NCBI RefSeq assembly: GCF_964194025.1 | Contig: NC_134478.1 | Location: 15,376,001 to 15,440,000, forward strand | From: Convolutriloba macropyga | Lineage: Eukaryota | DNA: 64,000 bases | Reading direction: 5' to 3' | Shown: positions 11,135 through 51,273 of the stretch, one piece after another | Layout: each line of letters opens with the position of its first letter | How positions within the stretch are numbered: the stretch's first letter is position 1 | Notes under the pieces: model-generated | Told to the model about the DNA's origin: nothing | What the model saw: only the letters and a program-made list of their open reading frames with translations | Database searches by the model: none | Translations under genes and position numbers: made by a program

Positions 11135-12690
11135 TTGCAATTAAATTGCCTGATAAATGTTTGATTCTGTTGATTAAATATTTTCTTGGTTAACTATTGC
11201 TTGCCGAAAAGTTGGCTGATTTTGCAGTGCAACGTTTTTAGAGTTGTCCTCATTTGTATTTCAGCCCATGTCTAGTATGATTTTACCTTGCTAACTTCCT
11301 TGCTCTGAGCTGCCTCAATTTTATTGTCAATCGAGGTTCAATCTTTTTCAAATTTATTTGATGATTGATGCTTAACGCATTTAGCGATACTAACGATCAG
11401 AAGCTTTAAACTTTTTCGTAATTTCGTTTTTTGTTAATCCAGTTAGGTTTTCAAGTTAGTTTGTTTATCTGTTGTTAATATTTTATTACGCCTCAGCCAA
11501 GTAACTTTTTTGCAGTTGTAGGATATATGGCGATTATAAAATTGTTTTTACGTGAAGTAAATGAAAGAAAAAATAAAAGCGCAAGTGATGAGGTTTGTTC
11601 ACTGTGATATCCTTGGATATCAAGTAGTCCTGAAAAGGATTGTTTTGATGATCATAGAGTTAATAAACATTTGGTTGTTTTAAGTTACATTTCTTAACCG
11701 GTACATTTAAATTATAAAATTATATTTGTTGTTAAATTTACTATGCTGTAAAACTATTGTACTCAATGCCCATATATGCTTCTGTTGAATCCGGATAAAT
11801 GTTTATTGAATGCACATAACAAAAGTAACTCACTGAAAGCTATTAATTTATAAGAGAGAGAGAGAGAATAAAGTCTTGAGAACAGTTGGTTGTTTTAAAG
11901 AGAAGAAAACCGTTGCAATTAAATTGCCTGATAAATGTTTGATTCTGTTGATTAAATATTTTCTTGGTTAACTATTGCTTGCCGAAAAGTTGGCTGATTT
12001 TGCAGTGCAACGTTTTTAGAGTTGTCTCATTTGTATTTCAGCCCATGTCTAGTATGATTTTACCTTGCTAACTTCCTTGCTCTGAGCTGCCTCAATTTTA
12101 TTGTCAATCGAGGTTCAATCTTTTTCAAATTTATTTGATGATTGTTGCTTAACGCATTTAGCGATACTAACGATCAGAAGCTTTAAACTTTTTCGTAATT
12201 TCGTTTTTTGTTAATCCACTTATGTTTTCAAGTTAGTTTATTTATCTGTTGTTAATATTTTATTACGCCTCAGCCAAGTAACTTTTTTTGCAGTTGTAGG
12301 ATATATGGCGATTATAAAATTGTTTTTACGTGAAGTAAATGAAAGAAAAAATAAAAGCGCAAGTGATGAGGTTTGTTCACTGTGATATCCTTGGATATCA
12401 AGTAGTCCTGAAAAGGATTGTTTTGATGATCATAGAGTTAATAAACATTTGGTTGTTTCAAGTTACATTTCTTAACCGGTACATTTAAATTATAAAATTA
12501 TATTTGTTGTTAAATTTACTATGCTGTAAAACTATTGTACTCAATGCCCATATATGCTTCTGTTGAATCCGGATAAATATTTAATGAATGCACATAACAA
12601 AAGTAACTTACTGAAAGCTATTAATTTATAAGAGAGAGAGAGAGAATAAAGTCATGAGAACAGTTGGTTGTTTTAAAGAGAAGAAAACCG
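11135..12690 (+). repeat. 778-bp tandem duplication (11135-11912 / 11913-12690) of intron DNA plus the first ~310 bp of the 5' LTR
   Basis: TTGCAATTAAATTGCC at 11135 and 11913; LTR start at 11603 and 12381 (offset 778); scattered substitutions between the copies. Confidence 0.95.
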
Positions 12691-12750
12691 TGATCCACCA
12701 CTCCGAAGAGCTTTAAGAGCTCAGGCTGAAAGTTAGACAAGATTATTAGT
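12381..12750 (+). repeat. 5' LTR (370 bp)
   Basis: TGTGATATCC...GATTATTAGT; about 12 substitutions and 2 small indels versus the 3' LTR by manual count; TATA-like TTTATAAG and AATAAA (12645). Confidence 0.95.
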
Positions 12751-12763
12751 TGGTGACAGAAGT
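12751..12763 (+). promoter_or_regulatory. Primer-binding site, probably tRNA-Leu
   Basis: TGGTGACAGAAGT directly after the LTR; 12/13 match to TGGTGTCAGAAGT, recalled as the complement of the tRNA-Leu(CAA) 3' end. Confidence 0.7.
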
Positions 12764-13446: not shown

Positions 13447-14686
13447 ATGGCTTAACCACATATCTCTCTCAGCCCATTCTCGGGCCTCGAACGTGAAAAT
13501 TGGCGCGAGTTTGAAGCTTTATTACGCAGTATCATAGCAGTAACAGCAGTCCCTAATGATCAACAAGCAAACTTCTAGCGACTTCACTTAAAAGACGGAG
13601 CCCTTAGATTTTTTCTAAAACTAGCTGAAGCTACTCAAAACAACTCAGAAAATGCACTCACAGCACTAAGAAATCAGTATTGTGACCCAAATTTTAGAGA
13701 AGTTCATGCAATAAAGTTAGAGAACTTTAAGTTTATACCGGGAAAAACAACGCCAGAGGACCTTCTAGTACGGATTCAAACATGCGCACATCAAGCTTAC
13801 CCAGATCATATTTTGCCAGTTGTAGCGCCAGCTGCAATTGACGCAGATAGTCCTAGGTTTGACAGCGAAACCGCTGTAAATGCGGAAAGGTTAGCAAGCG
13901 CAGGCAGAAACAGAGAAAGTCAAATTAAAAGAGCATTTATCAGAGCAATGCCAAACTGGCTACGCTTTAAACTGTTTGAACTTCCTGAAAATGCTACCCC
14001 ACAAGAAGCATGTAACGCAGCCCGAAAAAATTTAGTTTTGAAGGACCTTTGTCCCACAGATGAATGGTCACCAGGATCAGTTCGCGAAATTCAACAAGGA
14101 GTTACTGAGAATTTAGTAAATGCGCTCACAAAAATGGGCCAAGCACAAGATTCAATAGACAAAAATTTCGGAACTGACACGTAATTTTGTTGATAGTCAA
14201 ACCCGACAAGAAGGAAGCTCGCAGAAAAACATTACTCAGAACATACAAGGTGGCGGAAAATTTTTTAAACCGCGAAATTGGAATAACTCAGGTCAGCGTT
14301 CGTTTAGACCAAATAACAATCAGTGGGGCTACCAAAATTATCAATAAAATACAAATAGACAAAAACTTCCAAGAAATAGAAACCTACAATGGCAATTTGC
14401 ATTCCAAACATCTCCCCAGTAGTTTTACCAGAACCAATTTCCAGCACCAAATCAATATAATCAACAAACAAGTCAGAGCCAATTTTCCGAGCAAAACCCC
14501 CAGGTTTCCCAAAGTTTCCAGACAACAGATCAGAGTTTCCACTACCCACATGTGCAATCGGCACCAAAAATATGCTTCAAATGTGGATATCCCAACCATT
14601 TAGCAAAGGACTGTCAAACTTCAAGTAACCAAAATGCTAATCAGTACAAATCTGAAACGTTACCGTTTCCGATGCAAAAAAACTAA
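13447..14686 (+). pseudogene. gag: gag (premature stops and frameshifts) with C-terminal CCHC zinc knuckle
   Basis: MA*PHISLSPFSGLERENWREFE..LHLKDGALRFF capsid-like start; CFKCGYPNHLAKDC at ~14572-14613; stop TAA 14684-14686. Confidence 0.9.
14677..14686 (+). promoter_or_regulatory. -1 ribosomal frameshift slippery site A_AAA_AAC at the gag/pol junction
   Basis: CAA AAA AAC TAA ends gag; the -1 frame (from 14683) is open without stops into the protease ORF at 14833. Confidence 0.85.
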
Positions 14687-17600
14687 CTAAGCCACAGCCA
14701 AATGAGTCCAATAAAAAACAAAAGAATATAAAAAAAACTCAAAAAATTCATCATAATCATCATGTAGAGTCATCATCTATAAATGCTGTTATAACGTTAG
14801 AAGGAGAAGAATTCTATGTTCAAATTAATTTCTTGAAAAATTTTAAACGTCGAGCACTACTTGATACAGGAGCAACAACAAGTGCATTGTCGGAGTCAGT
14901 TTTATTGGAGCTACAGAAAAACAGCGTAATAAATAAAAGCTCTTATTGTGAACCAAAATTCAGTCAAGTTAAAACAGCATCAGGCCAAGAAATGAACATT
15001 GATAAACAAGTGTCAGTCGATTTCCACATCGGAGACTACAAGTTCGCAGAAGACTTTTTAGTGCTACCTAAAATGAATAACATAATTATTGGAAATTCAT
15101 TTTTCATAAAATGTAATATCCAAATTTGAGACAAAATACTCAAGTTTGAAGACGTCTGTTCATTTGAATGAACTCAAACCTGTATCAGGCAGACGTAGAA
15201 TATTGAAACCTTGCAAGTTCAATTTAACTGCTGCAAGAAAAATAACTATTGAAGCACAGTCACAGAGAGTCTTAGAATGCAAATTTGAGGACTCACAGCC
15301 TGAAATCAAACATTGTAGTAGAGTCGTTAAGCCTCAAAAACAGTTTGAAACAGATAAAGAGTTAGCTCAGCAATAGTAACAACAACTGAGACAAACACAG
15401 TTTTTCTCCCAGTTATAAATTTCAACACTCACCCAATTACAATAAAAATAAACACACCAATAGAACAATTTAAAGTTTTAAACTTCCAGGAGTTACAAAA
15501 ACTTCAGCATGTTAGTGCAGATACTATACAATTAGCAAAACTGAGAGATGAATCAAACTACTTAGCAGAAGTTAACAAATTAATAGAAATACCAAAAGCG
15601 CAACAAATTGAGAAACCAGCACCAGAATACGAGAAATTTTGGTTTCCAACTCCGGAAAACTGTCCAGACATAACCTGTCTATCAAATTGGCAAAAACAGG
15701 TATATGATGAAATAAGTGAGTACAGAGAAAGAGAAAAAATTAACCCAATAGAAAATCAGAGAGATAGGAATGAGTTTTTACAACATTTTTCTTGGCAAGA
15801 CTCAATCTTATCAGACACAGAGCGTAAACAAGTTGAACAACTCCTAGTAGAAAATTTTGACGTATTTGCTAAACACAGATTTGATGTTGGCTACAACTCC
15901 GAACTGCAAATAAAATTGACACCATCACATGAGTTACCTGTGTATTTACAAAGCCTTCACACTCCAATTCATCTTAGAGACGAACTTCTGACTGAATTAG
16001 CTTTGATGCACTACTTTGGACTAATAACAACTTTGTCAAACTCAAAGTACGGAGGTCCTATTTTTGCACAACGTAAAGAATCGGGTAAACTCCGCATTCT
16101 CATTGATCTCCGTCGAATAAACCATTTACTACGAAACGACTACCTAAATTTAAAGTTTCCAATTTCAGATATGCAAGATGCAGTTAATCATTTTGCTGGA
16201 AAGAAGCTATTCTGCAAGCTTGATTGCTCTCAAGCTTACCACTGTGTACAGATGGCTGATGATGTTTCTGTACAACTACTATCATTTAACTTCGCATCTC
16301 GAACTTACGCATATAAGTGTCTCGCACAAGGATTAAGCAAATCAGTAACTGGATTCAGCGCTTTTATTAGACATTACCTGGATCCTTGCCTAACAGCAAA
16401 TGTGTGTACCCAATATATGGATGACATAGGAAGTGGAGCTGAAATTGTTACCGAACTTCTGAGAAATCTTGAGCAAATAATTGATTGTGTCAGAAAATCG
16501 GGGTTAGAACTCTCACCCAAAAAATGTATATTTGGAACAACCAAAATTAAATTTTTGGGAAACATACTTACGCCAGCTGGAATTCAACCAGAAAGTAAGA
16601 AAATAGATAAATTTCTGTCAAAAATGAAAATGCCACAGACCGTAAAGCAGGTAAAGAGATTGATTGGATTTGTCCAGTTCTTTCGCAATCATATACCTAA
16701 GCTAAATGAAGTCTTGATACCTTTTTACGAACTTCTCCAAAATTCAGCATTTTTTGCAACAAGTGATCGTCATCAAGAAGCTCTAGAACAGATACGTAAT
16801 GCCTTGAGGAAAGCAACAACTGTTGTACTCAGATTTCCAAAACCAGGGCTCCAGTATGTTATATTATATGACGCAAGCTACCATGGAGCTGGATACGTAC
16901 TTCTAACTGAAGATTATCTGAAAGATGACAAACACAAAGAACAGAAAACATATGCTCCAGTTTATTTCGGCTCGAAACTATTTAACAAAGCACAGCTTAA
17001 ATTGTCAATCTTCTGTAAAGAATTTCTTGCATTATATTTCGCATTGGAAGAATTTTCTCACTATATTTGGGTAGCAGAAAAGCAAGTTTTAGTTTTCTCA
17101 GATAATAAAAGCCTAACCCAGTTCTTCAAGGCATGAACACTTCATCCTTCGCTTTGGGGATACTTGGACAGAGTACTAGCGTACAATATTGCCTTAGCAC
17201 ACATTCCAGGTAAAGCAAACGTTACCTTCAGAGCAACATTACCCAAGTGATGTAATGCAAATTGATATTATAGGTCCGTTTGACAGTAATCAATGCAGAT
17301 TTGCACTAACAGCAGTCGATGTATTTTCTAAGTACATTTTTGCCATTCCACTTTCAAACGCAGATGCACCAACAGTAGCAAAGTCCTTAGTTTCCATTTT
17401 TTAAGACATAGTTACATACCGTACATGATAATAGCAGATTTAGGCTCAGTTTTCACTTCTGACTTTATGCATGAATTAGCGAGTCTTCTCGAGATCAAAC
17501 TAAGACATGCAACCCTTAAACATGCACAATCAGTGGGAGTGGTTGAGCGATCTCACCTTTCTATGAAAAGAATCCTTAGATTGGATTCAAATCAAACAGG

Positions 17601-19441
17601 CAGTGACTGGCATAAATGGTTAGACATAGCAGTGTTTATACATAACACATCTTACTCCTCAGCTATAGGGTGCTCAACAACCTTAGTCTTTCATGGCCGA
17701 GAACCTCATAAAACACTGGATGTTAGATTTAACATCAAAGCCATTCAAGCAGCCATGCCAAGTTCAGACTTTCTTGTTACCTTACAAGATGCAATGACAC
17801 AACATTTTTCTCGAGTCAAAGAGAAACTTGTCACAATGTATCACAAGAAGTTATTACGATGACAAAGCGGAAGCTAAACCCTTAGAATTATTTTCCTATT
17901 GTCTTTTGTTTAATCCGCGCTTAGTAAATCAATCTGATCTTAGTCACAAAGCAGTCCAAATTTGGCTCCCGCTATACAGAGTTGAAAAAGTTCTTACAAA
18001 CTCTAACTATCTGATCCGAAAAGTTGAAACGCCATTTGCGCAATGTGTTCATAGGATCAGAATACGACCAATAGTACCACAGACCAGAATAGACAATATT
18101 GATACATTAACAACCAAATTTGTTGCAGACCCCAGTTTGAGCAAATTTAGACAAGAACCTCAACTTTTTGACGAAAAAGTTGGGAAATTGTTCGAAGAAG
18201 AGTACTATGAAGATGGAACAACAAGCAGTAACGAAAACGGTCTTAACACCCCTTCAGCGCAAGTATATTGGAGTTATCCTATAGGTCATCCAGAACCAGC
18301 ACTACCAAACGGCCCTGGAACACCACCAAGGGCACCAAGTCCCCCAAATATTTTTGAACCGCCGGAAGTACAATCTGACGAAGAACTAGTCCTATTTGTT
18401 GACGATGCAGCCCCTGCTGAACCATTTGAGGATCTATCAGTTGCCAATCGTAGTATTGATGAGTCTGAGGAGCCATTAATAACAATACAAGGCCATAACA
18501 ATGTATTGAAAATTGAAAGTCCAAGATCAACAAAATCAAAATTCCCATTAGAGATGCTAACTGGAGCAGAGGACCTGATTCACCGGTCAGCACTACGCCA
18601 ACCCCATCACCAGTGGCTAGCAATCTTCGTAGGTCGTCGCACATACCCAAAATGCCAATACCAATCTACACAGAACCAAAAATTTCAAAGGAAAAAAGAG
18701 TAACATTCAAAGAGCCTTCAACTTCGAAATCAAACAGAGGAGATAGATCTCGTAAAACTCAAACGGTAGATGAAGCACTGAGCGAATTTGGTATGCGAGA
18801 CTATAGCTCTATAGGTGATCTAGCAAAAACTATAGAAAAACGTAGAAAAGAAATGGAAAACGAGAAAACAAACAACCCGTCAACTTTGATAGAATCAAGT
18901 TCAAAGCAAGATACTTCAAAAAAAAACAAGTCCAAAAAAGCAAACTCAGTAGTTCTACGCAATCTCTGACAAAAGGGGACTACCCTTGTTTTGAGCTATG
19001 CAATATAATTTGCATGAGAGCGGAAATGAAAGAAATAAACGGCAATATTGTACAAAGTACATTTTCTGATTCATTTTTTTCGAAACTTGGCAAAATCTTG
19101 CAAAATTTTGTCCTAACTTGGTAAATAATGACGTACCAACTAACAATAACCTTGCACCCGGCTCAATACGTGTTCATTACGATAGTTACTCGGACCGATT
19201 TGTATATAATCTCACCATAAAACAAAAAGTTTCGAAAAATGAGTTGATAGCAAAAGTTTACCAATCGCTCATTTTACTAAGAAACCATGCCGTAGAAAAT
19301 CGTTTGACCCATATTTTTGTACCAAGACTAGGCATTGATCTCGACGTAGTGCCCTGGCAAGCAGTGAAGCAATTTTTTCAGAATATCTTTGGACAAACAG
19401 CGCTAAAGGTTGTGATAGTTTTTGCAACAGCAATTATTTGA
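14683..19441 (+). pseudogene. pol: pol: aspartic protease, RT, RNase H, integrase core, long low-complexity C-terminal extension ending in a macrodomain; stops, frameshifts and an internal deletion
   Basis: LLDTGA; LRILIDLRRIN, KLDCSQAYH, QYMDD; YDAS..KEFLAL..SDNKSL; integrase IDIIG / ADLGS / VERS (D,D,E). Confidence 0.93.
19026..19441 (+). pseudogene. TARG1/OARD1 (Poa1p-like) macrodomain
   Basis: MKEINGNI (beta-1-like, 19026, frameshifted), then RFVYNLTIKQK...QSLILLRNHAVENRLTHIFVPRLGIDLDVVPWQAVKQFFQNIFGQTALKVVIV, aligning by eye to TARG1 [45 protein letters not shown]...FEATDIKITVY. Confidence 0.88.
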
Positions 19442-20645
19442 ACTTGAATATCTCGCAAACTTAACAACAATTTCGATCAAACATTAGAAAAACATGGCCC
19501 CCATGGCTTCATCTTATTATGTGTCAATAATTACAGCCAGTTTGTACCATTTGGGCAAATCAATTAAAATATCAAAAAATCACAAAACTGAAATTTTTGA
19601 CCAAACTTTGAAAAGCAAATAAATTACAACTGATAGATAGATGACCTCAAAAAAGCGCTTAAATCTCCTTACAATATGCCGTGGGGAAGCAGGGTAACAA
19701 AAAAATGCAAAAGTTTGTGTCAAAAACTCAAGAAAAACGAAAAAACCACCCAAAATGTAGAAAAAACGCAAAAACTGCCCGTTTTTGCCCAAAAATACGC
19801 AAAGTTCTATGTGAAGGCATCCCTGTAGGAACACCAAACCCTACCATTGTTCCTGTGACTGCCTGCCACGTTTGCTGAAATTTGAACAATAACTTACGAG
19901 TTATTAGCTTTTTGTCAAAAAGAGAAAAAAATGGAAAAATTAGAAATTTAGGATTTTTCCATTGGCTATTTTCCCAACTTATAATCACACTAGAGTCCCG
20001 TCTTGAACCATACTAAAAGGAATTAGGAACAACAATTCCCTATCTATTATAAGTTAGGAGAACTGACCACCAAAAATTGCCAAAAATCGGATCCTAAAAA
20101 GTGCGATTTTCAATGCAAAGGTAGCCCTAGAAAACTGAAAAACAAATCACCATTTCTGACTACACTCAAATTAAGTTCACATCAATACCTCACTACATGC
20201 AAAAAATCTCCTTAAAATTCGCTTTATTTGCAGAGTTATACATCTTTCGTGGTCAAAAATTTTCAGACCTCAAAAATCGCCATTTTTGCCGAATTTCGAT
20301 ATCTTTACAACCAATATAAAAAAACACATTTTAGCTTGTTTTTTTTGGCCCAGTATCGAACTTGGTTAGCACAAAATTAAAGCCACACCAGTGTAAGGTC
20401 AAATGTTGTTAATTTTTTGAATTTTGAACTTTAATCGGATGTCCAAATTTTGACCCCGAAACTTGGGTGAAAAATAGGCAAATTGCAAGTTATCTCACAA
20501 GTTACTGGTTAAATCAACGCAAAAACCACATCACAACTACGCTCTAATCTGATTGTTAACTAGAAACTCAGTTAGCATGCAGTTAAAGCCCACCATCAAA
20601 GCAAATTTTCACTCCAACCTGTTAATACTAGATGTGAAAAATAGC

Positions 20646-21266
20646 TTAAATTTTGCAACTTACAAACAGAGAAGCTACAGGCCCTTCTACACGGCGAGTT
20701 TGCCTCCGTTGTTGAAACCTACCCTGAGTTATAGCCTTCCTCGCTTTTTCTTGCTGTTGGGGGCTAATAAATGTAGAGACTGAGAGTAACGAAGTCCATT
20801 GGTTGTCTTGCGCAGGAGTCAAAACACAATGGTAACATCCAAACGGTAAATAAATAGTGTCACCAGGAAGCTGCAACCCCTGCGCGCAGCTAGTTTTGAG
20901 CTTTGGTAATAACATTAAAAGGCTCTCAAGAGTTCCACTTAGCCTCTCGAAGTCACTGGCTAACTTTCCAGGAGAAAGAAAAATCCATAACTTTTTTGAG
21001 GTGCCGTGAAGGGTTATAAAAGCGTCTGCAGGATCTTCCCAGTCGCAATGAAAACTTGTATACTGCTTGCCGCAGCTTAAAACATTAAACCCAAATGACC
21101 AGGGTGCTTTTGTGTAACCATCAGGAAGTGAAAAATTAATAAAACTCTCCGTTTTCAAAGGTAAACAATCATTATAGATAGGAGTTTTAAAATAACCAAT
21201 TTTCTCTTGATTGCATGTTAACTTCTTTAGAACTGTCGAAAATTTTGATGCACTATACAAAGACTG
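20646..21266 (-). CDS. JmjC-domain 2-oxoglutarate/Fe(II) dioxygenase, terminal exon (antisense cargo of the LTR element)
   Basis: YTSFHCD (HxD), GTSKKLWIF, LQLPGDTIYLPFGCYHCVLT (distal His); acceptor GTCGTTTTAG at 21267-21268. Confidence 0.88.
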   Translation of the reverse strand, partial: QSLYSASKFSTVLKKLTCNQEKIGYFKTPIYNDCLPLKTESFINFSLPDGYTKAPWSFGFNVLSCGKQYTSFHCDWEDPADAFITLHGTSKKLWIFLSPGKLASDFERLSGTLESLLMLLPKLKTSCAQGLQLPGDTIYLPFGCYHCVLTPAQDNQWTSLLSVSTFISPQQQEKARKAITQGRFQQRRQTRRVEGPVASLFVSCKI

Positions 21267-21346
21267 CTAAAACGACAAACAAAAACGATGATAAATTGCC
21301 TAGCCCATACTAAAAATCTTTAAAAAAATTGAACTTCTATACTTAC

Positions 21347-21507
21347 ATCTAAATTTTTGTCCGTGTAACGAATTAAAGGCTCGCGAATAATAAAGGGCTG
21401 ATTTCGTACAATTTCATGCCCCAAGCCTTCCCTTACAGTAGGAATTTCACTTCTTACAGTCTCAGAAACGGCCTCAAGTTTATCCGTTGGATCTCAAATA
21501 CGCCAAT
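21347..21507 (-). CDS. JmjC gene upstream exon (one in-frame TGA at 21494-21496)
   Basis: ..EIPTVREGLGHEIVRNQPFIIREPLIRYTDKNLD then GTAAGT donor (21346-21341), phase 0, in frame with QSLYSASK; candidate acceptor CTCTAG at 21508-21509. Confidence 0.7.
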
Positions 21508-22358
21508 CTAGAGTAGTAGCGAAAAGAAGCAAATAGCCAAGCCAAATTAACTAAACACACGAACACAATTGCTCAGAAATTTCAAATTTCCCCGCATGTA
21601 ACGATAAAACAACACACGTTACGTTAACGCAACAGACTCAGTACAAGTGCTTAATAATGACCTCATGTAAGATTAAACCCATCATACGTACTTAACAACA
21701 AACATGCTGTATACTGCTTGTAACTACTTAACAACTTCGTGGCTAAATTTAAATGCAAGAAACATACGCAGTCAGAATCTAAATTTGTCATCCTATTTTC
21801 CCAGTCTCCGGATCAATGATCGCATACTTCTTAGCGCTGCAGAAAGAATTATCAACAGAGGCAATAGCAAAATGAGCACGATCCAGGAAAAGTCATAAGA
21901 CTGTTCTGATTGCACATCAGCTGGAAGCGCAGCAACAGGACATATTGGAGCTTGATCCCGAGTGGAAAAAATTGTCAAGCCTGATTGATCCCATTAATGG
22001 GTTCCATTTAAGCAACAGAGTACGCCGAATACCCCAAAGGAAATGTTGAAACTTTTTTAACTGAAAAACTCAATCCACTTTTAGCTACCAATTTCTTCAG
22101 ATCGGAACGAAGTCTACTGAAGTGAACAAAATAAATTTAAGTAGAAAAGATATGGAAAAAGGAAAACGCTAGAAGTGATTAAAATTTATTATGACAAAAC
22201 ACTCAGTGATAAACATTGCAAAACAAAGCACCAAAAACAAATCAAGATCACAGGATCATCAGTAATCTCTGTTGCTCTCATCACAATCATCCGAATAGTT
22301 TTCTATCATTTGTCTCATGGTCCACCTAAGCAGTACGAATATAAATGTTTTTAGGAAA

Positions 22359-24667
22359 ATGCGCTTAACCCGGTTGGTGGGATGCAGCATAATTGCTGCA
22401 ATACTGTTTGAAATCGATAAAAACATGGCATTCACGCAAATTGAGGAAAATCGAGAAAACGCAGAAAGTTTGTCAAAAGGAGTAATATTCCACGAAAATT
22501 CGAAGATTCTCCTAGTGGAAAAATGTGTTCCTGTTATATTTCTCGTTCCGTTCCCGCAGTACCATTTTACAGTGAAGGCAGATCTTGAAAAACTGCTAAG
22601 AAAACTTAAAAACATGTGGCATAAACCATCTCTTTTCTGTCCTCTAAATTTTTCCACAAACTTTCAACATAATACGACTGAATTCAACGTGGATTGGATT
22701 CTGCGAAAAATTGAGAATGAATTGGCAATTGCTAGAACAGAGGTTAGCTACCTGCATAAGGAAACACAGCATTTCTTGGAGTCAATACAAGACACAGTTC
22801 CTAATCGCAAAACGAGCAGCGCCAGTTCTGGCAGGATTGGCGGCAATCGGACTTTTTGGAGGAAGAATTGCCTTCGGATCATCTGGTAGCTGCGGAATTA
22901 TTGGAGTATTTGGAGGTTGTCACGATAAATCGAAGAAAAACGCAGAAAACATTCAAAAACTGGCCGACTATACAGAACAGATAGCGACCTACGTCTCACT
23001 TGTAAAATCAGAGACAGACGACAAATTCTTTCTCATTTCGAATGAACTGGCCACTCAGCACAAGATTCAAAATGAACTTATTGAGAACCAGAACACAAAC
23101 TGGGAAATAATTCAAAAGCAGTTCGATTTTTTCGAGAAAAATGTTAGATTGCTTCAAGATTGTGACCAATTACTTTTTTCAAATCAGCAGATAAACTTTA
23201 ATTTTGACACTTAGGCATCGTTACTCAATATGATATACTCAGATGTCAGAAGCTATAGAGCTGCACTTACTGGATTTTGCATGAATCTACTCAATTCAAT
23301 ACCAACACTGTTACAGAAAAGATTACCGATGTCCTTAGTACCTCGAGATTACCTAATGAACATTCTAGACTATGTTGCACGCGAACAGATGAACGCTCGT
23401 GACCGACTGACCCTAGCAATTCCCATGGATGATCTCCTGTCTTACTATAATGCAGAACTGTTGACGGATGCACTATCGATTAAGGAAGGGCTACTTTTAA
23501 CCCTTGCGATCCCGTTGGCTTCTCGTCAAACAGTTTTCACAGTTTTTACTGCAAAAATTGTACCAATGTCACAAAAAGACACTGGACGTGCAATTAGATG
23601 GAAAATAGAAGCTCCATACTTAGCCGTATCATAGGACTCTGTGGAAACAGCAGTGCTAAGCAAAGATCAACTAGGAAAATGTTTAGGATCTTCCAACTAC
23701 AGAATTTGTCATGAGACAATTCCAACGGAGTTGGGACACTCCTCATGTCTAGCCACACTTTTTTTGGGAACGACTATGGACGCCTTACTAACGTGTCCAA
23801 CCGAAAATGTTTCACCAGTGATAGAGGCAGCAGAAAACCTAGGATATGGTATCTGGGTAATCTTGTCAGCGACGGACACATTTACCATGCGAGAGTCTTC
23901 CATGGATAGTTCAAACGCTTTCCAAGTCAGAACTTACCCTGGTTGCCAAATATGTATTATCGCATTGGAATGTGGTAAGCAAATTACGACTCCACACTTG
24001 AAAATTAAGATCTGACCTAGGAAGCTGTCACAAGATTCCAGCAATTAAAATTCAAGTAGAACTTTCTGACCCTCTCCAGCATTTATTGACTGAAGCGCCA
24101 GAAATAGACCAACTCCCATATTTCAACAATAAAGATCAGGCCAGTCTTACTCTTATTAGACAAGTGCAAGAAAAATTAGTAAAAATACCGTCAATGAGAA
24201 AAACAGAAAACCTTGCACAGATAGCCAAGCCAATCGCCATTCAAATGACACATTTGAAACCTGTCTTGAGTAACACCTTTGAGAGCTACATGCCGTTTAA
24301 ATACGCGCTCCTTATGGGAGTGGTATCATTCTTAGTTTCATTGGCCTTGCACTTACTATGCATGTATCTTTATAACAGATTTAGCTCTGTACGCCGTTTA
24401 GTCCCGAACTTTATGAAGGTAGGTAAACAAAAGGTTCCAGTCAAACCAATGGTCGTAGTGGACAGAACTCACTTTCGAAAAATAGCAGGAGAGTGAGATA
24501 AGTGGGAAAAGCGTGCACATGTTGTCATGAAAAAGTCCAAATCGGAAAACAGCCTTAGAGCCCCTGACAATGAAAGGGAGGAAGAGCTTACGGAGCGGAG
24601 AAAAAGTCTATGCTCGGTATATACAAAAGGTGACTCCATAAACGACTTCGAAGAAGTCAATGTGTAA
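22359..24667 (+). pseudogene. env: env, class I fusion glycoprotein (baculovirus-F/errantivirus/paramyxovirus-F-like), disrupted
   Basis: Signal-like MRLTRLVGCSIIAAILF; basic cleavage site NRK(fs)R followed by fusion peptide AAPVLAGLAAIGLFGG; heptad repeat; Cys-rich region; TM YALLMGVVSFLVSLALHLLCMYLY; cytoplasmic tail to TAA 24665-24667. Confidence 0.88.
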
Positions 24668-24853: not shown

Positions 24854-25219
24854 TGTGATATCCTTGGATATCAAGTAGTCCTAAAAAGGATTGTTTTGAT
24901 GGTCATAGAGTTAATAAACATTTGGTTGTATTAAGTTACATTTCTTAACCGGTACATTTAAATTATACAAGTATATTTGATGTTAAATTTACTATGCTGT
25001 AAAACTATTGTACTCAATGCCCATATATGCTTCTGTTGAATCCGGATAAATATTAAATGAATACACATAACAAAAGTAACTTACTGAAAGCTATTAATTT
25101 ATAAGAGAGAGAGAGAATAAAGTCTTGAACAGTTGGTTGTTTTAAAGAGAAGAAAACCGTGATCCACCACTCCGAAGAGCCTTGAGAGCTCAGGCTGAAA
25201 GTTAGACAAGATTATTAGT
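24854..25219 (+). repeat. 3' LTR (366 bp)
   Basis: Direct repeat of 12381-12750, preceded by a purine tract. Confidence 0.95.
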
Positions 25220-26538
25220 TCCACGACTTATGTTAACTGAAATTTTTTGAGTGCACAGATTTGTTTTTGTGCTCTGAGCGAGCTACTAATAACTTGTGTT
25301 AGTGGGAACATAGTTCGCGGGAGGTTAATGCAATTAAAGTTTGAGCTGAACCCGAGCTCGAACTGCCAGCGGTTTCCGAGAACTTTTTCTAGCCTATTCA
25401 GACCCAAATTTTGCTGCTCCAAAGTAGCATATTAGTTTTTGGTTTATTTTTTCAGTAGTCATTGGACTTGTAAGAATTTTTTCTAAAGTCTTGCCTAAAG
25501 TGTCTAGTTTTTTTGCCAAGAAGTTTACCCAGTATATAGCTCAAATTATGCTTGGCTTTATTTTCTTACAGTATTGGAGAAAGTGTTGGAACAATGTTAT
25601 CTAGTTTGTAAAATGACATTTAACTACTTCAGCATTCAAAATAATTTTAAGTAGTTGTTTTGATTGCGCTGAAACGAACGCATTGTATCTTCTGTTGATC
25701 AAAGTGATTTTGTGGATTCATTTTATTGTGTCGTCTGTAGTCTTTCTTGAACATGAACTTCTGAATTTTGAAAAGAACTGTTTTTGTATAGAAGGTAGAG
25801 GCATATAACAGACCGGTTGATAAAAATTAATTTCCTCTGAGTTTTTAAAGTTTCCTTCGTACTTTTGCTGATGGTCTTTAAAAAAATGTCAATGCTCCGT
25901 AAACAGCGGTGAGTTGAGTTGAACGTGAAATCTGCCACGTCCATCTCGCCTCTATAGTCTCAAGTAATTATTCGAATTGTGAATTCAATAGTTTGTGATC
26001 AAGTTAAATAGTTTATGGGGGACTCAAATCACTGCTTACGGAAAACTGGCAAAAATGTTTATGCATTTTCTGCCGAAGTACTTATGGAATTCTTCTAGAT
26101 TGTCTCCTACAATTTAAACTCCATCTCTTTCCACTTGATTCATATGAAATTGGAAACGGTCCTCAATCGGAATTGTACCAAAATACTTTTTGAAATCGGA
26201 ATTGTACCAAAATGCTTTTTGAAATCTGGTCAAATGCAATTCATCTGTTGAATTCCATTTTTCGTATCTATTCCATTTCTAAAATTTACGCGTGAGAGAT
26301 CACCCTGAAAGATCATGTTCGGACACTCTGTTTTTTTTGGGACGAAGTGAACCAGTTAATTCTGCAATGAACTTGATATTTTATGGCTTTGCAATATATA
26401 ATTTCATATAATTATAAGGCAAATACTTAATTTCGCAGATTTAAGTTTTTTGCGCTTTTCTTTTTATAAATTGTTAAAACTCACGTATATTTCGCTACAT
26501 AACAGATCCCAATTTTTATTGAGTTTTTTTTGCTTCAG

Positions 26539-27280
26539 ATACTACCTTGATCCACCTGAAGTACAAACTGTCTTAACAGCTTCAAACAGCAGTGAGCAAC
26601 TACATTACGGCTACTTCCGAGATGATCCTAACAAAATGCCAGCTTTTGTTGTGTCCGCGAAATCTTCCAAAGACTGTGTTCTAAGATACGCTGGTGACAA
26701 CTTACTCGAATTTATCTACAAAGAAATCAACTTAAAATTATCTAAGGTTTCAACTGACAGCTCTGTTTCTAACGAGAGAAATAAACTAACAAATTTGAAG
26801 TCAAAATTGGAAAAGTTTGCTGCTACTTGTGATCCCGTTGTGCAATTAAACTGTAAGGAAAAGAATTTCCGAGATCGCAAAAGGAAATCTCAAGGAACGA
26901 CTTTTCACAAATTGGGAATTTCCGTTTACGTCAAAAATGACATTGGTTATCGCCCTATTCATCACGATGACGCAACATTACGTAAGATGATGCAAAAAGT
27001 TGCGCAATGCGAATCGCAGTCTGAACGAGTTGCTGCATTTGGACCATTACATGAACAAATAACCTTCGTTCAATTTGCGAATGATGAATCAGATTTTGGT
27101 ATGGGCTTGGAATTGGGGCTGAATTTTTTCCTCCAGGGAGCGGAATGTTTTCACAAAGCGGCGGGGAAGCTACTGCCTACTGCGTATAAGTTTTTGAAAA
27201 GAGATTTGTACGCCGAAATAATTGAGAAACATCTAGCCAAGCGCGAGAAAGATCCAACCAATATCTTGTATCTCAAGTAA
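26539..27280 (+). CDS. HPF1: HPF1 coding exon 3 (terminal)
   Basis: RYYLDPPEVQT..HYGYFRDDP..TFHKLGI..KNDIGYRP..TFVQFANDESDFGMGLELG..AEIIEKHL; the ANDE catalytic Glu is present; acceptor TGCTTCAG 26538 is phase-compatible with exon 2. Confidence 0.96.
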
Positions 27281-27950
27281 TTTTGCAGTGATATTGACTT
27301 TGAGAATGATGCTTTTCAGGTGTTCAAATTGTCTTTTCTATTTTTGATTACAAGTTTAATTTAGTGAACAGAGACTTTGTTTTCGATTGTAGCAATTGCA
27401 ACTTGCTTGATTGAAAAGTTTCAACAATCGACCATTGGGAGTTTGAGTTCGCATGCACCTCGAAAATAGCTTTTTTTCGGTGACATTGTTGTATTTTTGG
27501 TATAGTTATCTTTCATAGAAATGAAAATATGACGGCTATTTTTTGTCCACGCTGCAATGGAAAACAAAATTTTTGCAATAGCAGTTTTCGAAGTAACTGA
27601 AATGCTTGGGGAAATGACTTTTTGTCCCTGCATCACAAATTGCCTTAAACTTATCAATTGACTCAGTTCACTGTTTGAAGTGTGAAGATTTTAAAATTTC
27701 GGAAAATAGTTGTTACAAAGGGATAAGAAATAATGTAACAAAATGATGAATGAAAGGAAAAGATGCAAAGTTCAAGGATGGAGTTTACTCATTCTTCAAT
27801 ATTTTTTACTTCGTTTTTTGCGTCACAATAAATTTGTACCTAACCCTGACGATTTTTAAAATAATTTTGTGCGACATGAAAAGTAAGAGTTTTGATGAGA
27901 TTTTTAAAAATTTTCTGTTCAATTTGTATTTCTATGGGTTTTGGTTGTTA

Positions 27951-28333
27951 ATTGCTCTTGAACGCAGTTCATAGCAATTATTGTAAACGTGTGTGTCTTT
28001 TTTATGCAAATTTTTCGCTTGACAGTTTTGCGCTTTTCTTCTAGATCATTCTTTGACTTCTCAAGTGATTTTTTCACGCTTTCGTTCTTCATTTTTGAGT
28101 GATCTCTATTGCTCTGAAGTAAAGCTAATATAAATCCGGTTGCAGAATAAGTGAGGTATGTGATCTGTAGCGCAGTGGTTAGTAGTTGTGGCTGTTGATC
28201 GGGAGGGCAGTGGTTCGAATCCCGGCGGGGGAAAAGTTTTTTGCACCCATAATTTGATCTAGGCTACAGCCCCTGAATTAATTTGCCTCGCCTGTCGTTC
28301 AAGAGCAATTTTTCCGACATTTGTCGGTTTATG
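27951..28333 (+). mobile_element. Non-autonomous Helentron/DINE-1-like element (family D) containing a tRNA-derived segment
   Basis: Perfect 14-bp inverted repeat ATTGCTCTTGAACG / CGTTCAAGAGCAAT, hairpin CCGACA-TT-TGTCGG, then TTTATG in a T-run. Confidence 0.7.
28165..28231 (+). repeat. tRNA-derived (SINE-head-like) sequence with Pol III A and B boxes
   Basis: A box TAGCGCAGTGG and B box GGTTCGAATCC; no clean acceptor stem. Confidence 0.7.
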
Positions 28334-28729
28334 TTTCAATTTTCAGCTCTCCTTTTTTACATCTCAACCATTGCTTGGTTTGTTGTTTTAAAAATGACAT
28401 CATTCTCTGGGAGTAATGTTCTTTTAGACTGATTATTTGTGATATAAGGCAATCCCTATACAATCTTTTGCCTGGCGATATTGCAATTGTGTCTCGAGAA
28501 AGGTTGTTAGTCTCAAAACCCTCGGGGAAATTAGTGGCTTTGGGGTGCTCTGAGATTTTTTTGGTCTCTAAGTGTACGTTTTGCCCTCTTAGAAGCTTGA
28601 ATTCATGGTGTAGATGGGCTGTCATATTATCTCTCAACTCCCTTACACAGTAAACCTATCCACCCTAATTGGAAGGGATCTATTCTCTTTCGAGCATCAC
28701 CCCTCAGTGTTTTTATGACCCCAATTACA

Positions 28730-28810: not shown

Positions 28811-29220
28811 TTTGGTTCCTGCGTAATCGCAGCGGAACAGCATTTGGCTACTGAGGCCTGTTCTCAGCTGCCCTTCTTCCCCACATTCTTATTATTCCCC
28901 ACATTTCAGACTGTTCTTTTCATGGGCAGCATTGCTCTTTTTTGGTGACTATGGCCAATTTTTTCGCGTCTGAAACTTTCACGTGGCGCCATCATTGCAG
29001 CCAACATTGGTCAGGCTATGGTCAACCTGAAACTATTGTTAAATAAGAGCTCATCCTCACACAGACAGCTCCACGGAGGCAGGGATTGAACTTTCATTTC
29101 TTGGTGTGTGAATCAAACACCTTACCTCTCGGCTATCACTCTACAAATTATATGTTATATAGCACGTTACTGTGTAAGAAAATAGCACGTGCGCCTGGGG
29201 GTCATAAAAAATTTATGTTC

Positions 29221-29664
29221 ACTAAGCTGGGGGGGGGGGGTAAAACAGAAAAGATCCGAAAATTGTTGGAGCAGCAGTTCAGCCTCTATTTATTCATAAC
29301 GAGGTCAGCCATTGAAATTCTCAAAAGGGGCCCAAATTTTTTTTCACTTTAACTTTTAGTGCTGGCGAAAAAAGCTTTAATAAGATGTTATAAGAATATA
29401 CCCCCCCCCCCCCTGCTTGAGCAAGCTACAAATGAATCGACCTCCCGCCTGTCAATAGACAGCAGTTCGTCAGATTTAAATCGGTTTTCATTTATTTGTA
29501 GGTTTTGGTTGTAAATGATATGCAGTGAACTAAACATGGGGTACATGGCACAAACGGAGAGGATCCAGCTTATTTTTGAGATGAACAGTTCAACTGGCGG
29601 TAGCCAATCCTTCGTAAGAAGATCTGGAGCCGGATCTTTTCCGTCTGTGCCCCCCAGCTTAGTG
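29221..29664. mobile_element. Probable MITE or inverted pair with G/C-run termini
   Basis: ACTAAGCTGGGGGG..ACAGAAAAGATCCG (29221-29258) is inverted to CGGATCTTTTCCGTCTGTGCCCCCCAGCTTAGT (29631-29664); related to the elements at 59018-59333. Confidence 0.5.
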
Positions 29665-30280
29665 GGTAGGGGCTCAGTATTTGCAACTCCATGTGCACGT
29701 GCTTTTTGACTTCATGATGTACTATGCAATGGCAGGTGCTCTGTAAGAAGTCATAATGTACCAGAGAGCACCAGCAGAAACATTCAAAATTACTTCTGAG
29801 ATCACTGTTTTATTTGCCAAAATCTTTTGCGTTTGTGCCTCTCACCAGTTTTTGGTGGTTGCATGTTATTTGCACACCCCAGACGATTATACCATATTTT
29901 TATATAATGATTAACTATGTAAGGGCACGTGCTCTGTTACTGGGGGGTGCATAACGTACTGGGGGGAGGGACATAAACAGAGGAGATCCCAATTGCTATC
30001 TAATGGCACGTGCTCCATTTTGCCACATAATTCCTGATGACACAATGTTCTTGAAATGTGCATCTCTTTGTTATTTGCCGCCATTTATTCCGTCATTTTG
30101 GGTCAAAAATTGAGAGCAAAATCACATTAGACTATAATGTCTGGATTATCTGCGTTGATCAGTCAGTCGCTGTAATCCGTTAATAAAGTACACATATTTA
30201 TGGTCGCATTGGATCCTCATTTCAGGTAAATTATGATTATTAGCTAATTAACCACCGACTATTATTTCATTCCACTAAAT

Positions 30281-32034
30281 ATGTTTCAAATTACAAATTC
30301 TCTCGACTTTATATTATGCCCGTTCCTTCGAAAGGGTCACTCGTGTCTAAGATCACATTGTGTTTTCAACCACAGAAGTCCAAACCATAAAGATAGGTTC
30401 AAAAATGCACAAAAATATCCTGGAGGGGTTTTGCTTCCAAATTTGGCTGCTGTTGACGAGCGCAAATCTGACCTAGAGTATGATCCGATCGATAATTTTG
30501 CAGTTTCAGGTTTGAGCCCAACTAAAGTTACAGTACCCAGTTACGATCCGAACTTTGTATTTAATACTTACGCACCGTTTCCGACTACAAATTCCTACCT
30601 CAGCGGTGTTTCTAAAAGCAACGCACAAAATTTATCTAATTTGGCCCTATGTCAAAGTGTGACCACAAAAACGGATCAATCAATTCAAGTTGAAGATGAA
30701 CAAACATTAAAAAAACGAGGCTGCGAAACTTTGGATGAACAAAACTTGACATCTGAAGCTTCAAGTTCAAAAAAGGCAAAAAGTGACAAACCTTCAAACA
30801 CAAAATCGAAGAAAAGTGAAGTAACGCCGAAGGAATCACCCAATAAAAAGAAAACCGAGCCGGTTAAAAGGAAAGTGGTGTCCGAGGTCGATTTCCTTTC
30901 AATCGAGGAGGGTGGAACTGATTTTCCCAAAAAGAAAAGGAAGAAAGAAAAATCTACGAAAGAAAAGAAAAGCTCCAAGGATACGGAACTCAAAAATCAA
31001 GATTCAGAAGAAATGACAGTTATCGATATAAGGGATGATTTGGACAATTCCGATCAGGAAATTGAGCATTCGAACTCCGATCAGGAATGGCCAGAGATCC
31101 AGCCGAAAATTACTATTCCATTCCCGGTGAAAGAAGAGCGAAAAGCAAAAACGTCAAGTCCTTACGACCTAATGCAAAAACGTCTGCAATTGCTCGGTCA
31201 GCTCAAAGCATCGCTCACAAAACCAATTAAATCTAAATTTTCATCTGTGGTTTCAAACTCGGTACCTTCAGCTTCTGATATTACCAAAGCGTCTACTATA
31301 AACTCGCTCCAGACTTCCGTCGTTAATGGTTCAGAATCAACAATTCCAGTTTCGGCGCCCGTTTGCAAATCTCGCGTGGCGCATCAGCCGAAAGACCAGA
31401 TTGCAGAAAACGGACAACTTGTTCTGAACTCAAATTCTCCAAGTTACGCTGAAGCTGCAAAAGTAGCCAAACCTCCTATAATTGATCCGAAAGCGGGTTC
31501 TGCTAAAATACCTATTTTAGTTCGTCAGCAGTATTTGAACAAATTTTTTGAACAGTATCAGCGGTTAACGTCAGATAAAGACGCTTATACGAAATCTTCA
31601 GAAGCCGAGAAAGCAATATATGATCGAATTAATTCTAAAGCAGTTTATTTGAGTTCGTGTGTGAATGCTTTGAAACGACTGACGTCAATGACCAAGTCGG
31701 ATTTTGCAGCAGAAAGCGAATCAAAAAGCAGTTCGTCATCGTCGAAAGAAAGTAAATCTTCTGTTTGGTCGAAATCAGTTTCCCATAGCCAAGTTCTGTT
31801 CGGTTCTAAGTACTCATTGGTAACACAAAATGCGAAAAAGTCTACTTCGAGTGGTAATCAGTTGAAAGTATCGGGTGAACAGTTTTACAAGTTATGTGAA
31901 CGATTTTGTTTGACGGAAGAGCAGCTGAAGGAACATGGTTTTCCCGGTTTCGGAGAGAGCAAGAAGAAAGTTTTCAAGTTGGCAGAGCTTGAGAATGTTG
32001 GTGTTAATGACATTGAAGAGAGAATATGTGCAAG
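30281..32034 (+). CDS. REXO1: RNA exonuclease 1 homolog, exon 1
   Basis: N-terminal CPF..C.R.HC.F.H motif; KIPILVRQQYLNKF..EKAIYDRINSKAVYLSSCVNALKRL; LTEEQLKEHGFP..RICAR; donor GTATGT 32035 in phase 2. Confidence 0.9.
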
Positions 32035-32456
32035 GTATGTGACTTGAGATCAGAAATCCCAGATTCTTGCGATCTCGAATGTGACGTGATATCCTAATTG
32101 TTCTTCAAAATTGATTTGTCAATAATTGTTTGTCAAAAGTAAGTTCGCACCCCCTTAGTCTCACGTATCAGATCAGTTTAGTCCATATTGTTAATCTGAG
32201 TCTTTCCTATTACCCATTATACCCCCCTCGTCATTACCTTAAGCATACGATAAGGAGGGTATAATGGGAAGGACGCCTTTCCTTTTTATCAACGCCCCCC
32301 CCCCCCCCCCCCCCCCAACTAAAGTCCTCTCATTTTGGTACTCATTTTGGTAAAATTACGTAAAGCGGGGGATCCAAAGGTTCTAGTCGCACAAAGCTTT
32401 AATGACGAAATGTGCTGATTGTGCGGTGTATTTATTTGCTTTGCTTGTGTGGTTAG

Positions 32457-40425: not shown

Positions 40426-40732
40426 TTATTATAGGGGTCATTTCATAGAAAGAGGTTATTTCATAGTAATAAAATTTTAATAGGCCGTTTATTAAGGTCA
40501 TTGAAGTAACAATGAAGTCAACATACACTGAAGGCAGAGAATTATAACCAAAAAACTTCGAACATCACTTTTTTTAACAAATATTTAATCTGAAGTTTTT
40601 TATCTCAAATTTTTGGTAAAAGTGCTAATATGAAATACCTGGGAACTCTCATTTTGTTTGTCGCCTGATGTTGTTTTACTCACGAAGTAAGGCGATGATC
40701 TTAAACGAAAATGAGATATAAACCTGATTCAG

Positions 40733-41301
40733 ATAAAGAAAAAGCCAAGAAGAAATCTGAGTGCAGAGAAGAATCTGATAAGAATTCCGAGCAGACTAAT
40801 TTTTCCAACTTAGCAGTGTACGCTCTTGACTGTGAAATGTGCTACACCACAATGGGCGTGGAACTAACCCGAGTTAGTATTGTCAATGACAAAGGAGAAG
40901 TTTGTTATGACAAATTAGTAAAGCCTCGCTTTCAAGTTGTCGATTATAACACACGATTCAGTGGAATTACAGAAGCCATGTTGAAAAATGTTTCGACCAA
41001 TCTGAAAATGGTTCAGAAAGATATTTTGAACTTGATAAGTGCTGATTCAATTCTTGTGGGACATTCGCTAGAAAGTGACATGTTTGCGTTGCAGTTGAGT
41101 CACGGGAAAGTAATCGATACGTCAGTTTTGTACCCCCACAAAATGGGGTTGCCCTACAAAAGGTCTCTGAAGAATTTGGCTCTGGATTATTTAGGCAGAA
41201 TTATCCAGGAAGACATAAATGGTCATGATAGTAACGAGGACGCAGAAACTTGTATGTCATTATTGAGATGTAAGATAAAATCAAATCCATTATATAAATA
41301 G
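40733..41301 (+). CDS. REXO1: REXO1 terminal exon, DEDDh exonuclease domain (acceptor at 40732 or 40813)
   Basis: [40 protein letters not shown]. Confidence 0.95.
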
Positions 41302-50900: not shown

Positions 50901-51273
50901 TATTTTCGAGAAATTTTGATTTTAAAGAGACGATCTGTTCATTCCGAAAAGGCCTAAATTCCTATGATTTTTTCAATAACTTTTTGAAAAAAGATTTCCA
51001 GATTTTTAATTGGAATTGGGTTTAGCAGGCAGAGAGCTTTAAAGATATACCGTGAAATAAGTTTAACTTGTCTGAAGAGAAAAGCCCATTTTTTAAGTTT
51101 AGGAACAATAATGGTTGCTATCGATTTTTACTCGACAATTGATTGCTCCTAAATAAGGAAGTCAAGAGCCGTTCTGAAGTTGCTTTCGTTGCCGAACCTA
51201 GCGTTCCTGGATATGTTTAAGCTACCGGTTGGAGTTGGTTTGTTCTCAAATCTGTTTTTCAGATGTAGTCAAT

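Follow-up and report, generated by a model that had tools for sequence, protein, structure and literature searches.

What is a JmjC dioxygenase gene with a spliceosomal intron doing on the antisense strand of a retroelement? The gene lies in a 64-kb stretch of Convolutriloba macropyga DNA (hereafter, the window), within a Gypsy element of 12.8 kb, where it occupies an antisense slot between pol and an env-like gene. The original prediction read it as a captured or domesticated gene with its own internal antisense promoter, possibly acting on histone methyl marks or host proteins, in a copy that is probably dead.

The element is delimited by two forward-strand LTRs (5' LTR, 12381..12751; 3' LTR, 24854..25220) that are 95.7% identical, and the 5-bp flanks agree at four of five bases. 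Inspection of the sequence revealed a forward-strand TGG stretch resembling a primer-binding site directly after the 5' LTR, and a polypurine tract lies just before the 3' LTR. ORF remnants at 13579..14603 on the forward strand have no Pfam match and are named gag from their position alone. They are followed on the same strand by pol (14656..19441), in which Pfam recognized protease, RT, RNase H, integrase, and a Macro-like C-terminal domain. The LTRs, PBS, PPT, and PR-RT-RH-IN order make this a Ty3/Gypsy element, in the operational sense used for errantiviruses (PMC13524379). The Macro-like domain at the end of pol (19070-19441) falls under the Pfam cut-off (E 6e-4 to 0.03) and shares one frame with the integrase in intact families (e.g. 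L041:3-4760:+); it is a possible ADP-ribose reader or eraser. The env-like gene (22348..24646, forward strand), with an acceptor before its start, belongs to a type of 770-790-aa ORF that has a basic cleavage-like site, a hydrophobic peptide, and a membrane anchor. Because Pfam and PDB sequence searches, F- and gB-type fusogen homology included, gave no match, the env label rests on position and these features. Defects in the window element affect pol (frameshifts and an ~800-bp deletion near 17225, relative to sister copies), the env-like gene, the small membrane-protein gene described below, and the JmjC start. The CpG observed/expected ratio of pol is 0.64, against 0.78-1.15 in four host ORFs, which is compatible with methylation of the elements. 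A 778-bp tandem duplication (11135-12691) takes in 311 bp from the start of the 5' LTR together with its flank and therefore postdates insertion of the element.

Beyond the element, the window holds short repeats at 27950-28340 and 28900-30000 that are SINE- or MITE-like, with a read depth of up to ~10,000x single copy. It also holds the host gene HPF1 (26402-27280), a REXO1-like host gene with EloA-BP1 and RNase T domains (30248-32047 with 40705-41301), and a 687-codon single-exon host ORF (51202-53265) to which Pfam gives no match and which we take to resemble Mediator subunit 17.

The JmjC gene is read from the minus strand. Exon 2 (20646..21266, 206 codons) contains H73-x-D75, K92-x-W94, H146, and the RRQTRR stretch in a basic C-terminal tail, all as had been predicted. 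The proposed 80-nt GT-AG intron was recovered as well (21267..21346; GTAAGT...GTCGTTTTAG); it is in phase 0, fuses ...KNLD to QSLY, and follows an exon 1 of 47 codons (21347..21487), giving a whole protein of ~253 aa. Nine families each include one or more copies whose intron, 67-111 nt long with GT-AG ends, falls at the identical codon boundary, and exon 1 spans 45-62 codons across copies. These splice sites come from an automatic picker that found no motif at 6 of 41 loci and made several mispicks, and those of families D and H were checked by eye. Intron identity is 52-64% between families versus 89-93% within family A (eight pairs, six of them between families). We infer splicing of the intron from this conservation; the four available read sets cover introns and intergenic DNA evenly, i.e. 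they behave as DNA, and among the read junctions listed none falls at this intron. A further acceptor that had been placed at 21508 could not be confirmed. The acceptor conserved among sister copies, likely a spliced-leader acceptor, lies at ~21499-21493 on the minus strand, five bases ahead of the start position, and is degenerate in the window copy. The window copy is indeed dead, but the stop once held responsible (21496-21494) is part of this acceptor and is non-coding. The copy is dead because its start site is broken: position 21487-21485 is a start codon in three of four sisters (L032, L033, and L039), and the window copy has none.

How far this arrangement extends was seen from a search of the 1.18-Gb genome, which returned 75 JmjC gene matches among 100 candidates scored. 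For 40 of the 75, the best-scoring with one per tandem array, we considered the surrounding 10 kb. At 39 of these 40 loci it runs antisense to retroelement genes, at 32 integrase lies on one flank and env on the other, and one locus (L070) is rearranged. The copies make up at least nine families, with 23-60% protein identity to the window copy. Between families, replacement changes in exon 2 are far below synonymous changes in all 15 pairs (p <= 9e-5). The remaining five frames of exon 2 contain 11-28 stops per pair. Among the unsaturated pairs, the dN/dS of exon 2 is 0.075 for families F/G and 0.15 and 0.35 for the others, the remaining between-family pairs being saturated; the window copy and L031 gave 0.24 (p 0.002), and exon 1 gave 0.27 for families F/G. 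The gene is part of this element clade: its intron is retained, and from family to family it evolves under purifying selection.

Because this codon-level constraint acts on the JmjC frame, it largely refutes the view of the gene as a passenger, that is, a host gene fragment captured once that has no function for the element or is kept for antisense RNA only. Such a passenger would sit well with the env-bearing relatives in which no cargo was found within 7 kb (eight of 40, see below), but the constraint is confined to the JmjC frame despite saturating synonymous divergence, the catalytic residues and intron position are conserved over nine families, and a second class of JmjC gene occupies the identical slot with its H-x-E motif in 13 of 13 cases. 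We regard a passenger as very improbable.

Within families, a replacement deficit at p <= 0.05 was found in only 4 of 15 pairs, and near-identical sisters, which differ by few changes, have ratios mostly near or above 1. Such a contrast is expected where elements are selected as they replicate, and copies decay once inserted. It also bears on whether the gene is kept, at least in part, for the benefit of the host. A candidate for such a role is an array at C2:27097949-27109890 (L010, L013-L022, and L038) of eleven tandem 1.14-kb units, each with the acceptor, exon 1, the intron, and an exon 2 cut at the C-terminus. In 8 of the 11 units exon 2 stays open for 161-179 codons, through the triad, and this, along with purifying selection, would be consistent with a host function. 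On the other hand, the units are shortened, early stops occur in 3 of 11, and the motif region is altered in some; the 64-kb window, too, has frequent tandem duplications, and copies elsewhere remain within dispersed elements. Smaller JmjC arrays were seen on C15, C4, C8, and C12. Among the 40 loci examined at 10 kb, we found no copy fixed at a single site away from elements and constrained at the level of the host. Domestication, as offered in the original prediction, is not supported, given the many copies, their position antisense to retroelement genes, and the lack of constraint after insertion in most young sisters, and we consider even a partial form of it improbable. We are confident that the elements instead carry JmjC as an accessory gene under selection, neither domesticated nor a passenger.

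The next question is what kind of protein is being selected. Our main profile, an alignment of 24 element copies, matched PHF8, PHF2, and KDM7A at E 1.5e-6 to 4e-5 and JMJD6 at only 0.04, and the reverse search with a KDM7-like query matched element copies at E ~1e-4. The top matches in the Atlas were JmjC clusters (0.95). Single copies stay under the Pfam cut-offs: the window copy scored 14 bits for JmjC versus cut-offs of 22-24, and JmjC_2 matched 20 of 24 copies at E <= 1, with a best value of 5e-6. Among the 24 aligned copies, the iron triad and lysine are well kept (H73, D75, and K92 each in 23 of 24; H146 in 19 of the 22 covered), as are an aromatic residue at position 76 (23 of 24) and T70 (18 of 24), and the T-x-x-H-x-D motif, the K, and the distal H line up with the KDM7 subfamily. 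A structure model reached a pLDDT of 86 from a 66-row alignment that included KDM7-like rows, compared with 44 from element copies alone, without those rows and distant relatives. Foldseek placed PHF8 first for the model (E 2.7e-6), a whole-fold search gave a near-tie between JMJD5 (Z 10.1), PHF2 (9.8), FIH (9.7), and KDM2A (9.6), and a BFVD fold search returned generic cupin/JmjC matches only. The modeled fold is the JmjC double-stranded beta-helix, and the profile match is independent of it. The assignment of the element gene as a JmjC dioxygenase is supported, since profile, Atlas, and fold searches all return JmjC matches, and its predicted iron and 2-oxoglutarate ligands are intact.

Searching 1.84 billion representatives with the profile returned 98 matches. 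Close relatives were among them, as were unnamed stand-alone proteins ~170-310 aa long, and the tail held KDM7/KDM2-type proteins. We drew a quick tree from 54 rows (midpoint-rooted, with long branches, and class II genes, described below, left out), in which the element proteins group with 26 unnamed proteins (SH-aLRT 97). The tree places them outside a separate 13-row KDM7/KDM2 clade that contains the host KDM7-like gene L077 (SH-aLRT 97 and 99 for the separation). This position, as far as a quick tree can place it, gives no support to a recent capture of the host KDM7. About 23 of the unnamed stand-alone JmjC proteins (P0034-P0074 and P0081; P0061 has nine members) have basic tails and come from other assemblies, and such proteins might be carried by other mobile elements; a metagenome scan using P0047 found no relative. 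We also noted a divergent KDM7/KDM2-type JmjC gene on a long branch (L081, C4:20860142-20863396) with a zinc-finger-like N-terminal ORF.

In the search for a PHD or CXXC reader, we found no Cys-rich finger in exon 1 and no such Pfam match in exon 2, and no DNA-binding domain was seen in the JmjC protein. The positions that align with the PHF8 co-substrate tyrosine and pocket asparagine are F/L and S in the element copies. As we read it, the element protein would work like a stripped KDM7-type enzyme from which the reader is absent. A rival explanation is that it is an element-borne hydroxylase, or a demethylase of a non-histone substrate, that either modifies a protein of the element itself or disables a host factor for restriction, RNA silencing, or translation. 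The structural tie (JMJD5, FIH, JMJD7, and TYW5), the missing chromatin reader, and the separate clade in the quick tree are all consistent with such an enzyme, but profiles of the 24 copies and of both classes mixed match KDM7 better, by orders of magnitude, than they match JMJD6 or other hydroxylases, and the aromatic residue after H-x-D in 23 of 24 copies and the basic tail also argue against it.

JmjC comes second in a two-gene antisense cassette. Upstream of it on the same strand lies a gene for a small membrane protein (21793..22060, minus strand), which is broken in the window copy and is present, intact or broken, in all nine families. The protein is 73-115 aa long in intact relatives and single-pass, with a hydrophobic stretch, often a basic tail, and the motif C..CC-x-N-G/V/A-T/S; it has no Pfam match over the cut-off, and its gene has a dN/dS of 0.24-0.33 between families. 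A pyrimidine-rich AG is found shortly before the starts of both the small gene (22061..22069, minus strand) and JmjC, at a distance of 3-15 nt in cassette genes, and also before the env start in several families. The published acoel spliced-leader motif has 2026 matches in this genome versus 0 for the control, which points to an acoel host, and the text describing an acoel with a published leader gives 30% of its genes as trans-spliced (PMC9911081). Because both starts follow acceptors and the genome holds the acoel leader, the cassette genes are likely trans-spliced by the host spliced leader; alternatively, they may be cis-spliced from an unseen 5' exon. Leader-headed retrocopied mRNAs have their start 1-8 nt past the leader, near the 3-15 nt of the cassette genes. 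A strict acceptor-before-start rule held in only 3 of 6 host ORFs (background 8.5%; starts chosen by eye). Genome pattern searches for retrocopies of leader-spliced cassette mRNA found none, giving 0, 0, and 2 unrelated matches. There are ~2000 dispersed spliced-leader copies; those inspected (L139-L144) head retrocopied mRNAs, some of them from multi-copy families, and L139 and L142 are 80% alike over 1.5 kb. This suggests that the leader-headed multi-copy families are trans-spliced retroelements.

The first cassette acceptor and the env acceptor are separated by ~100-280 bp across families, and in the window the two face away from a head-to-head spacer of ~280 bp (22070..22347). Because so little sequence parts them, a two-way internal promoter is plausible, and the antisense promoter proposed originally can be kept as a candidate. 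At the other end of the cassette, a candidate polyadenylation signal (AATAAA, 20223..20228, minus strand) lies ~420 nt past the JmjC stop.

The content of the slot differs between near-identical backbones. The window element is 91-98% identical to L034 and L036 over pol and env, with a dS of 0.10-0.13, and only 40-69% identical over 20250-22500, where JmjC synonymous sites are saturated. Likewise, in four pairs among L090, L091, L092, and L096, and in L100/L102, backbones that are 91-95% identical surround slots with no DNA match. We also examined cargo from the env side, where a search gave 2058 candidates, of which 131 were scored, and we hand-picked 40 loci outside the first JmjC set with 7 kb each. 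These carried an intronless H-x-E JmjC gene (13), an OTU-like gene (19), or no cargo in the 7 kb (8), counts that include much close kin and are thus not independent events. Cargo types are intermixed on the env tree.

The intronless genes, which we call class II JmjC (L087-L098 and L116; e.g. L087:2291-3478:+ and L092:3386-4471:-), lie in the same antisense slot and encode proteins of ~350-450 aa, all 13 of which have H-x-E. They fall into two subtypes ~40% alike and are under purifying selection. Taken singly, none of the seven class II proteins tested had a Pfam JmjC match, and the 24-copy profile also missed them; a wider profile recovered the 13 loci, and a mixed profile of eight class II and three class I rows matches PHF8 at 3e-6. 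The third cargo (L099, L100, L102, L106, and 15 more of L087-L126) is a multi-exon antisense gene with an integrase-like H..H..CxxC zinc motif, G-x-C-x-F/L-x-S, and a terminal H/Y-C-E/L-P, the Cys/His motifs being assigned by eye. In hhalign against the genome's own OTU profile, its last exon scored 57% and its Cys exon 2%. Searches for an OTU match in Pfam, PDB, and the Atlas found none, with one uninformative homolog, and the data weakly suggest an OTU-like protease. OTU domains also occur within open frames of ~2,500 aa at L127-L133, in several copies, possibly another mobile element. A PHD-finger ORF in the slot region of one locus (L119:3179-4144:+) resembles ORF1 of non-LTR elements and is inserted.

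These observations can be assembled into a mechanism. The antisense orientation would preserve the intron, which presumably survives because the reverse-transcribed genomic RNA presents no splice sites. A single antisense transcript may originate in the spacer before env or further 3', and trans-splicing of the host leader would resolve it, as in an operon, into an mRNA for the small membrane protein and one for JmjC. Recombination between co-packaged genomes could swap the slot. The basic tail would direct the JmjC protein to the nucleus, where the enzyme, having no reader, might act broadly or via a partner and strip repressive histone methyl marks, so that the elements escape silencing. Selection would act on replicating elements, and inserted copies, that of the window included, would decay afterwards. 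The text on PHF8 describes it as an eraser of H3K9me1/2, H3K27me, and H4K20me1 (PMC11417953).

An eraser of repressive histone methyl marks with an anti-silencing role is a reading to which we give an even chance. The first gene of the cassette encodes a membrane protein, which points to a role that is, at least in part, non-nuclear. This partnership, and the alternation of JmjC with a protease-like cargo, fit the hydroxylase or non-histone demethylase introduced above, which we hold to be possible but somewhat doubtful. With the eraser reading, the locus as a whole can be pictured as a modular counter-defense locus: an antisense, trans-spliced operon that would couple a small membrane protein to an exchangeable eraser, be it an H-x-D JmjC with intron, an H-x-E JmjC without one, or an OTU-like protease. 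A Macro domain would lie beside it on pol, and recombination would shuffle the cargo among families amid an arms race with silencing of chromatin by the host. This broader picture is tentative, and we place it just short of an even call.

Several parts of this system have counterparts elsewhere. The closest proteins by profile and Foldseek are KDM7 (PHF8, PHF2, and KDM7A) and KDM2, from which the element protein, whose activity is predicted, differs in its length of ~250 aa, its lack of a PHD, its position outside their clade in the quick tree, and two pocket positions. As for chromatin factors carried by mobile elements, DNMTs are reportedly present in retrotransposons. TET/JBP genes occur in fungal DNA transposons, where the accessible text states that no TET-bearing retrotransposon was found (PMC12730594), an MBD occurs in arthropod Copia elements, in a text that does not mention JmjC (PMC6673714), and VANC21 is a transposon-borne chromatin factor (PMC8616336). 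As far as the accessible texts go, the TET/JBP, MBD, and VANC21 cases have in common with ours that the chromatin factors are element-encoded and selected, with several families per genome, and none of these or of the DNMT cases is a JmjC gene in an env-bearing element. The endogenized giant viruses of Amoebidium, which carry KDM4-like JmjC-only genes (PMC11244446), come close in another way: these too are parasite-borne, stand-alone JmjC genes with introns, and a link to host chromatin is discussed in the accessible text. That case concerns a DNA virus, a protist, and a KDM4-derived gene, whereas ours concerns a reverse-transcribing element, an animal, and an antisense, KDM7-like gene.

The position and organization of the cassette also have parallels. 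Antisense extra ORFs are described in plant and fungal Gypsy elements (Grande gene23, RIRE2, Retand, and Boty), as are antisense genes in HTLV; the Grande-type ORFs are likewise antisense, downstream of pol, and conserved within families, and Grande has its own promoter (PMC7264820). They differ in lacking, in the accessible text, a clear homolog, an enzyme activity, and an env, and neither a two-gene cassette nor cargo exchange is described there. Bdelloid LTR elements carry family-specific ORF3 cargo (GDSL or DEDDy), so that, as here, differing enzymes are found at one position across families; these ORF3s are non-envelope, and the text mentions neither JmjC nor an intron (PMC5408684). Invertebrate errantiviruses and the Tor elements of Oikopleura share the gag-pol-env order (PMC13524379, PMC4402516), and in Tor3b/4b env is driven by an internal promoter upstream of it (PMC4402516). 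The main text of the invertebrate errantivirus survey is without mention of JmjC, antisense or accessory genes, or acoels (PMC13524379). The insect MDG1 elements encode sORF2/FAST-like small membrane proteins, which our first cassette protein resembles in its 73-115 aa, single pass, and often basic tail; it differs from the sORF2 of the accessible text in being encoded antisense and beside env, in having no myristoylation motif, and in its cysteine-rich ectodomain of ~50-60 aa with a glycosylation sequon (PMC11952523).

Parasite-borne chromatin enzymes, antisense extra ORFs, and family-specific enzyme cargo are thus already known. We could not find a prior description of an exchangeable, probably trans-spliced antisense cassette, and in the openly accessible papers searched no JmjC gene was found described for an LTR element of an animal. 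The prevailing view is that LTR elements of animals evade silencing through sequence drift or choice of cell niche. If our reading is true, a modular demethylase-type enzyme found across a clade would be an enzymatic counter-measure against silencing. The layout implies that a reverse-transcribed genome may keep introns and several genes in antisense, probably by borrowing host trans-splicing, and the ~23 stand-alone JmjC proteins from other assemblies point to a wider family that has no name.
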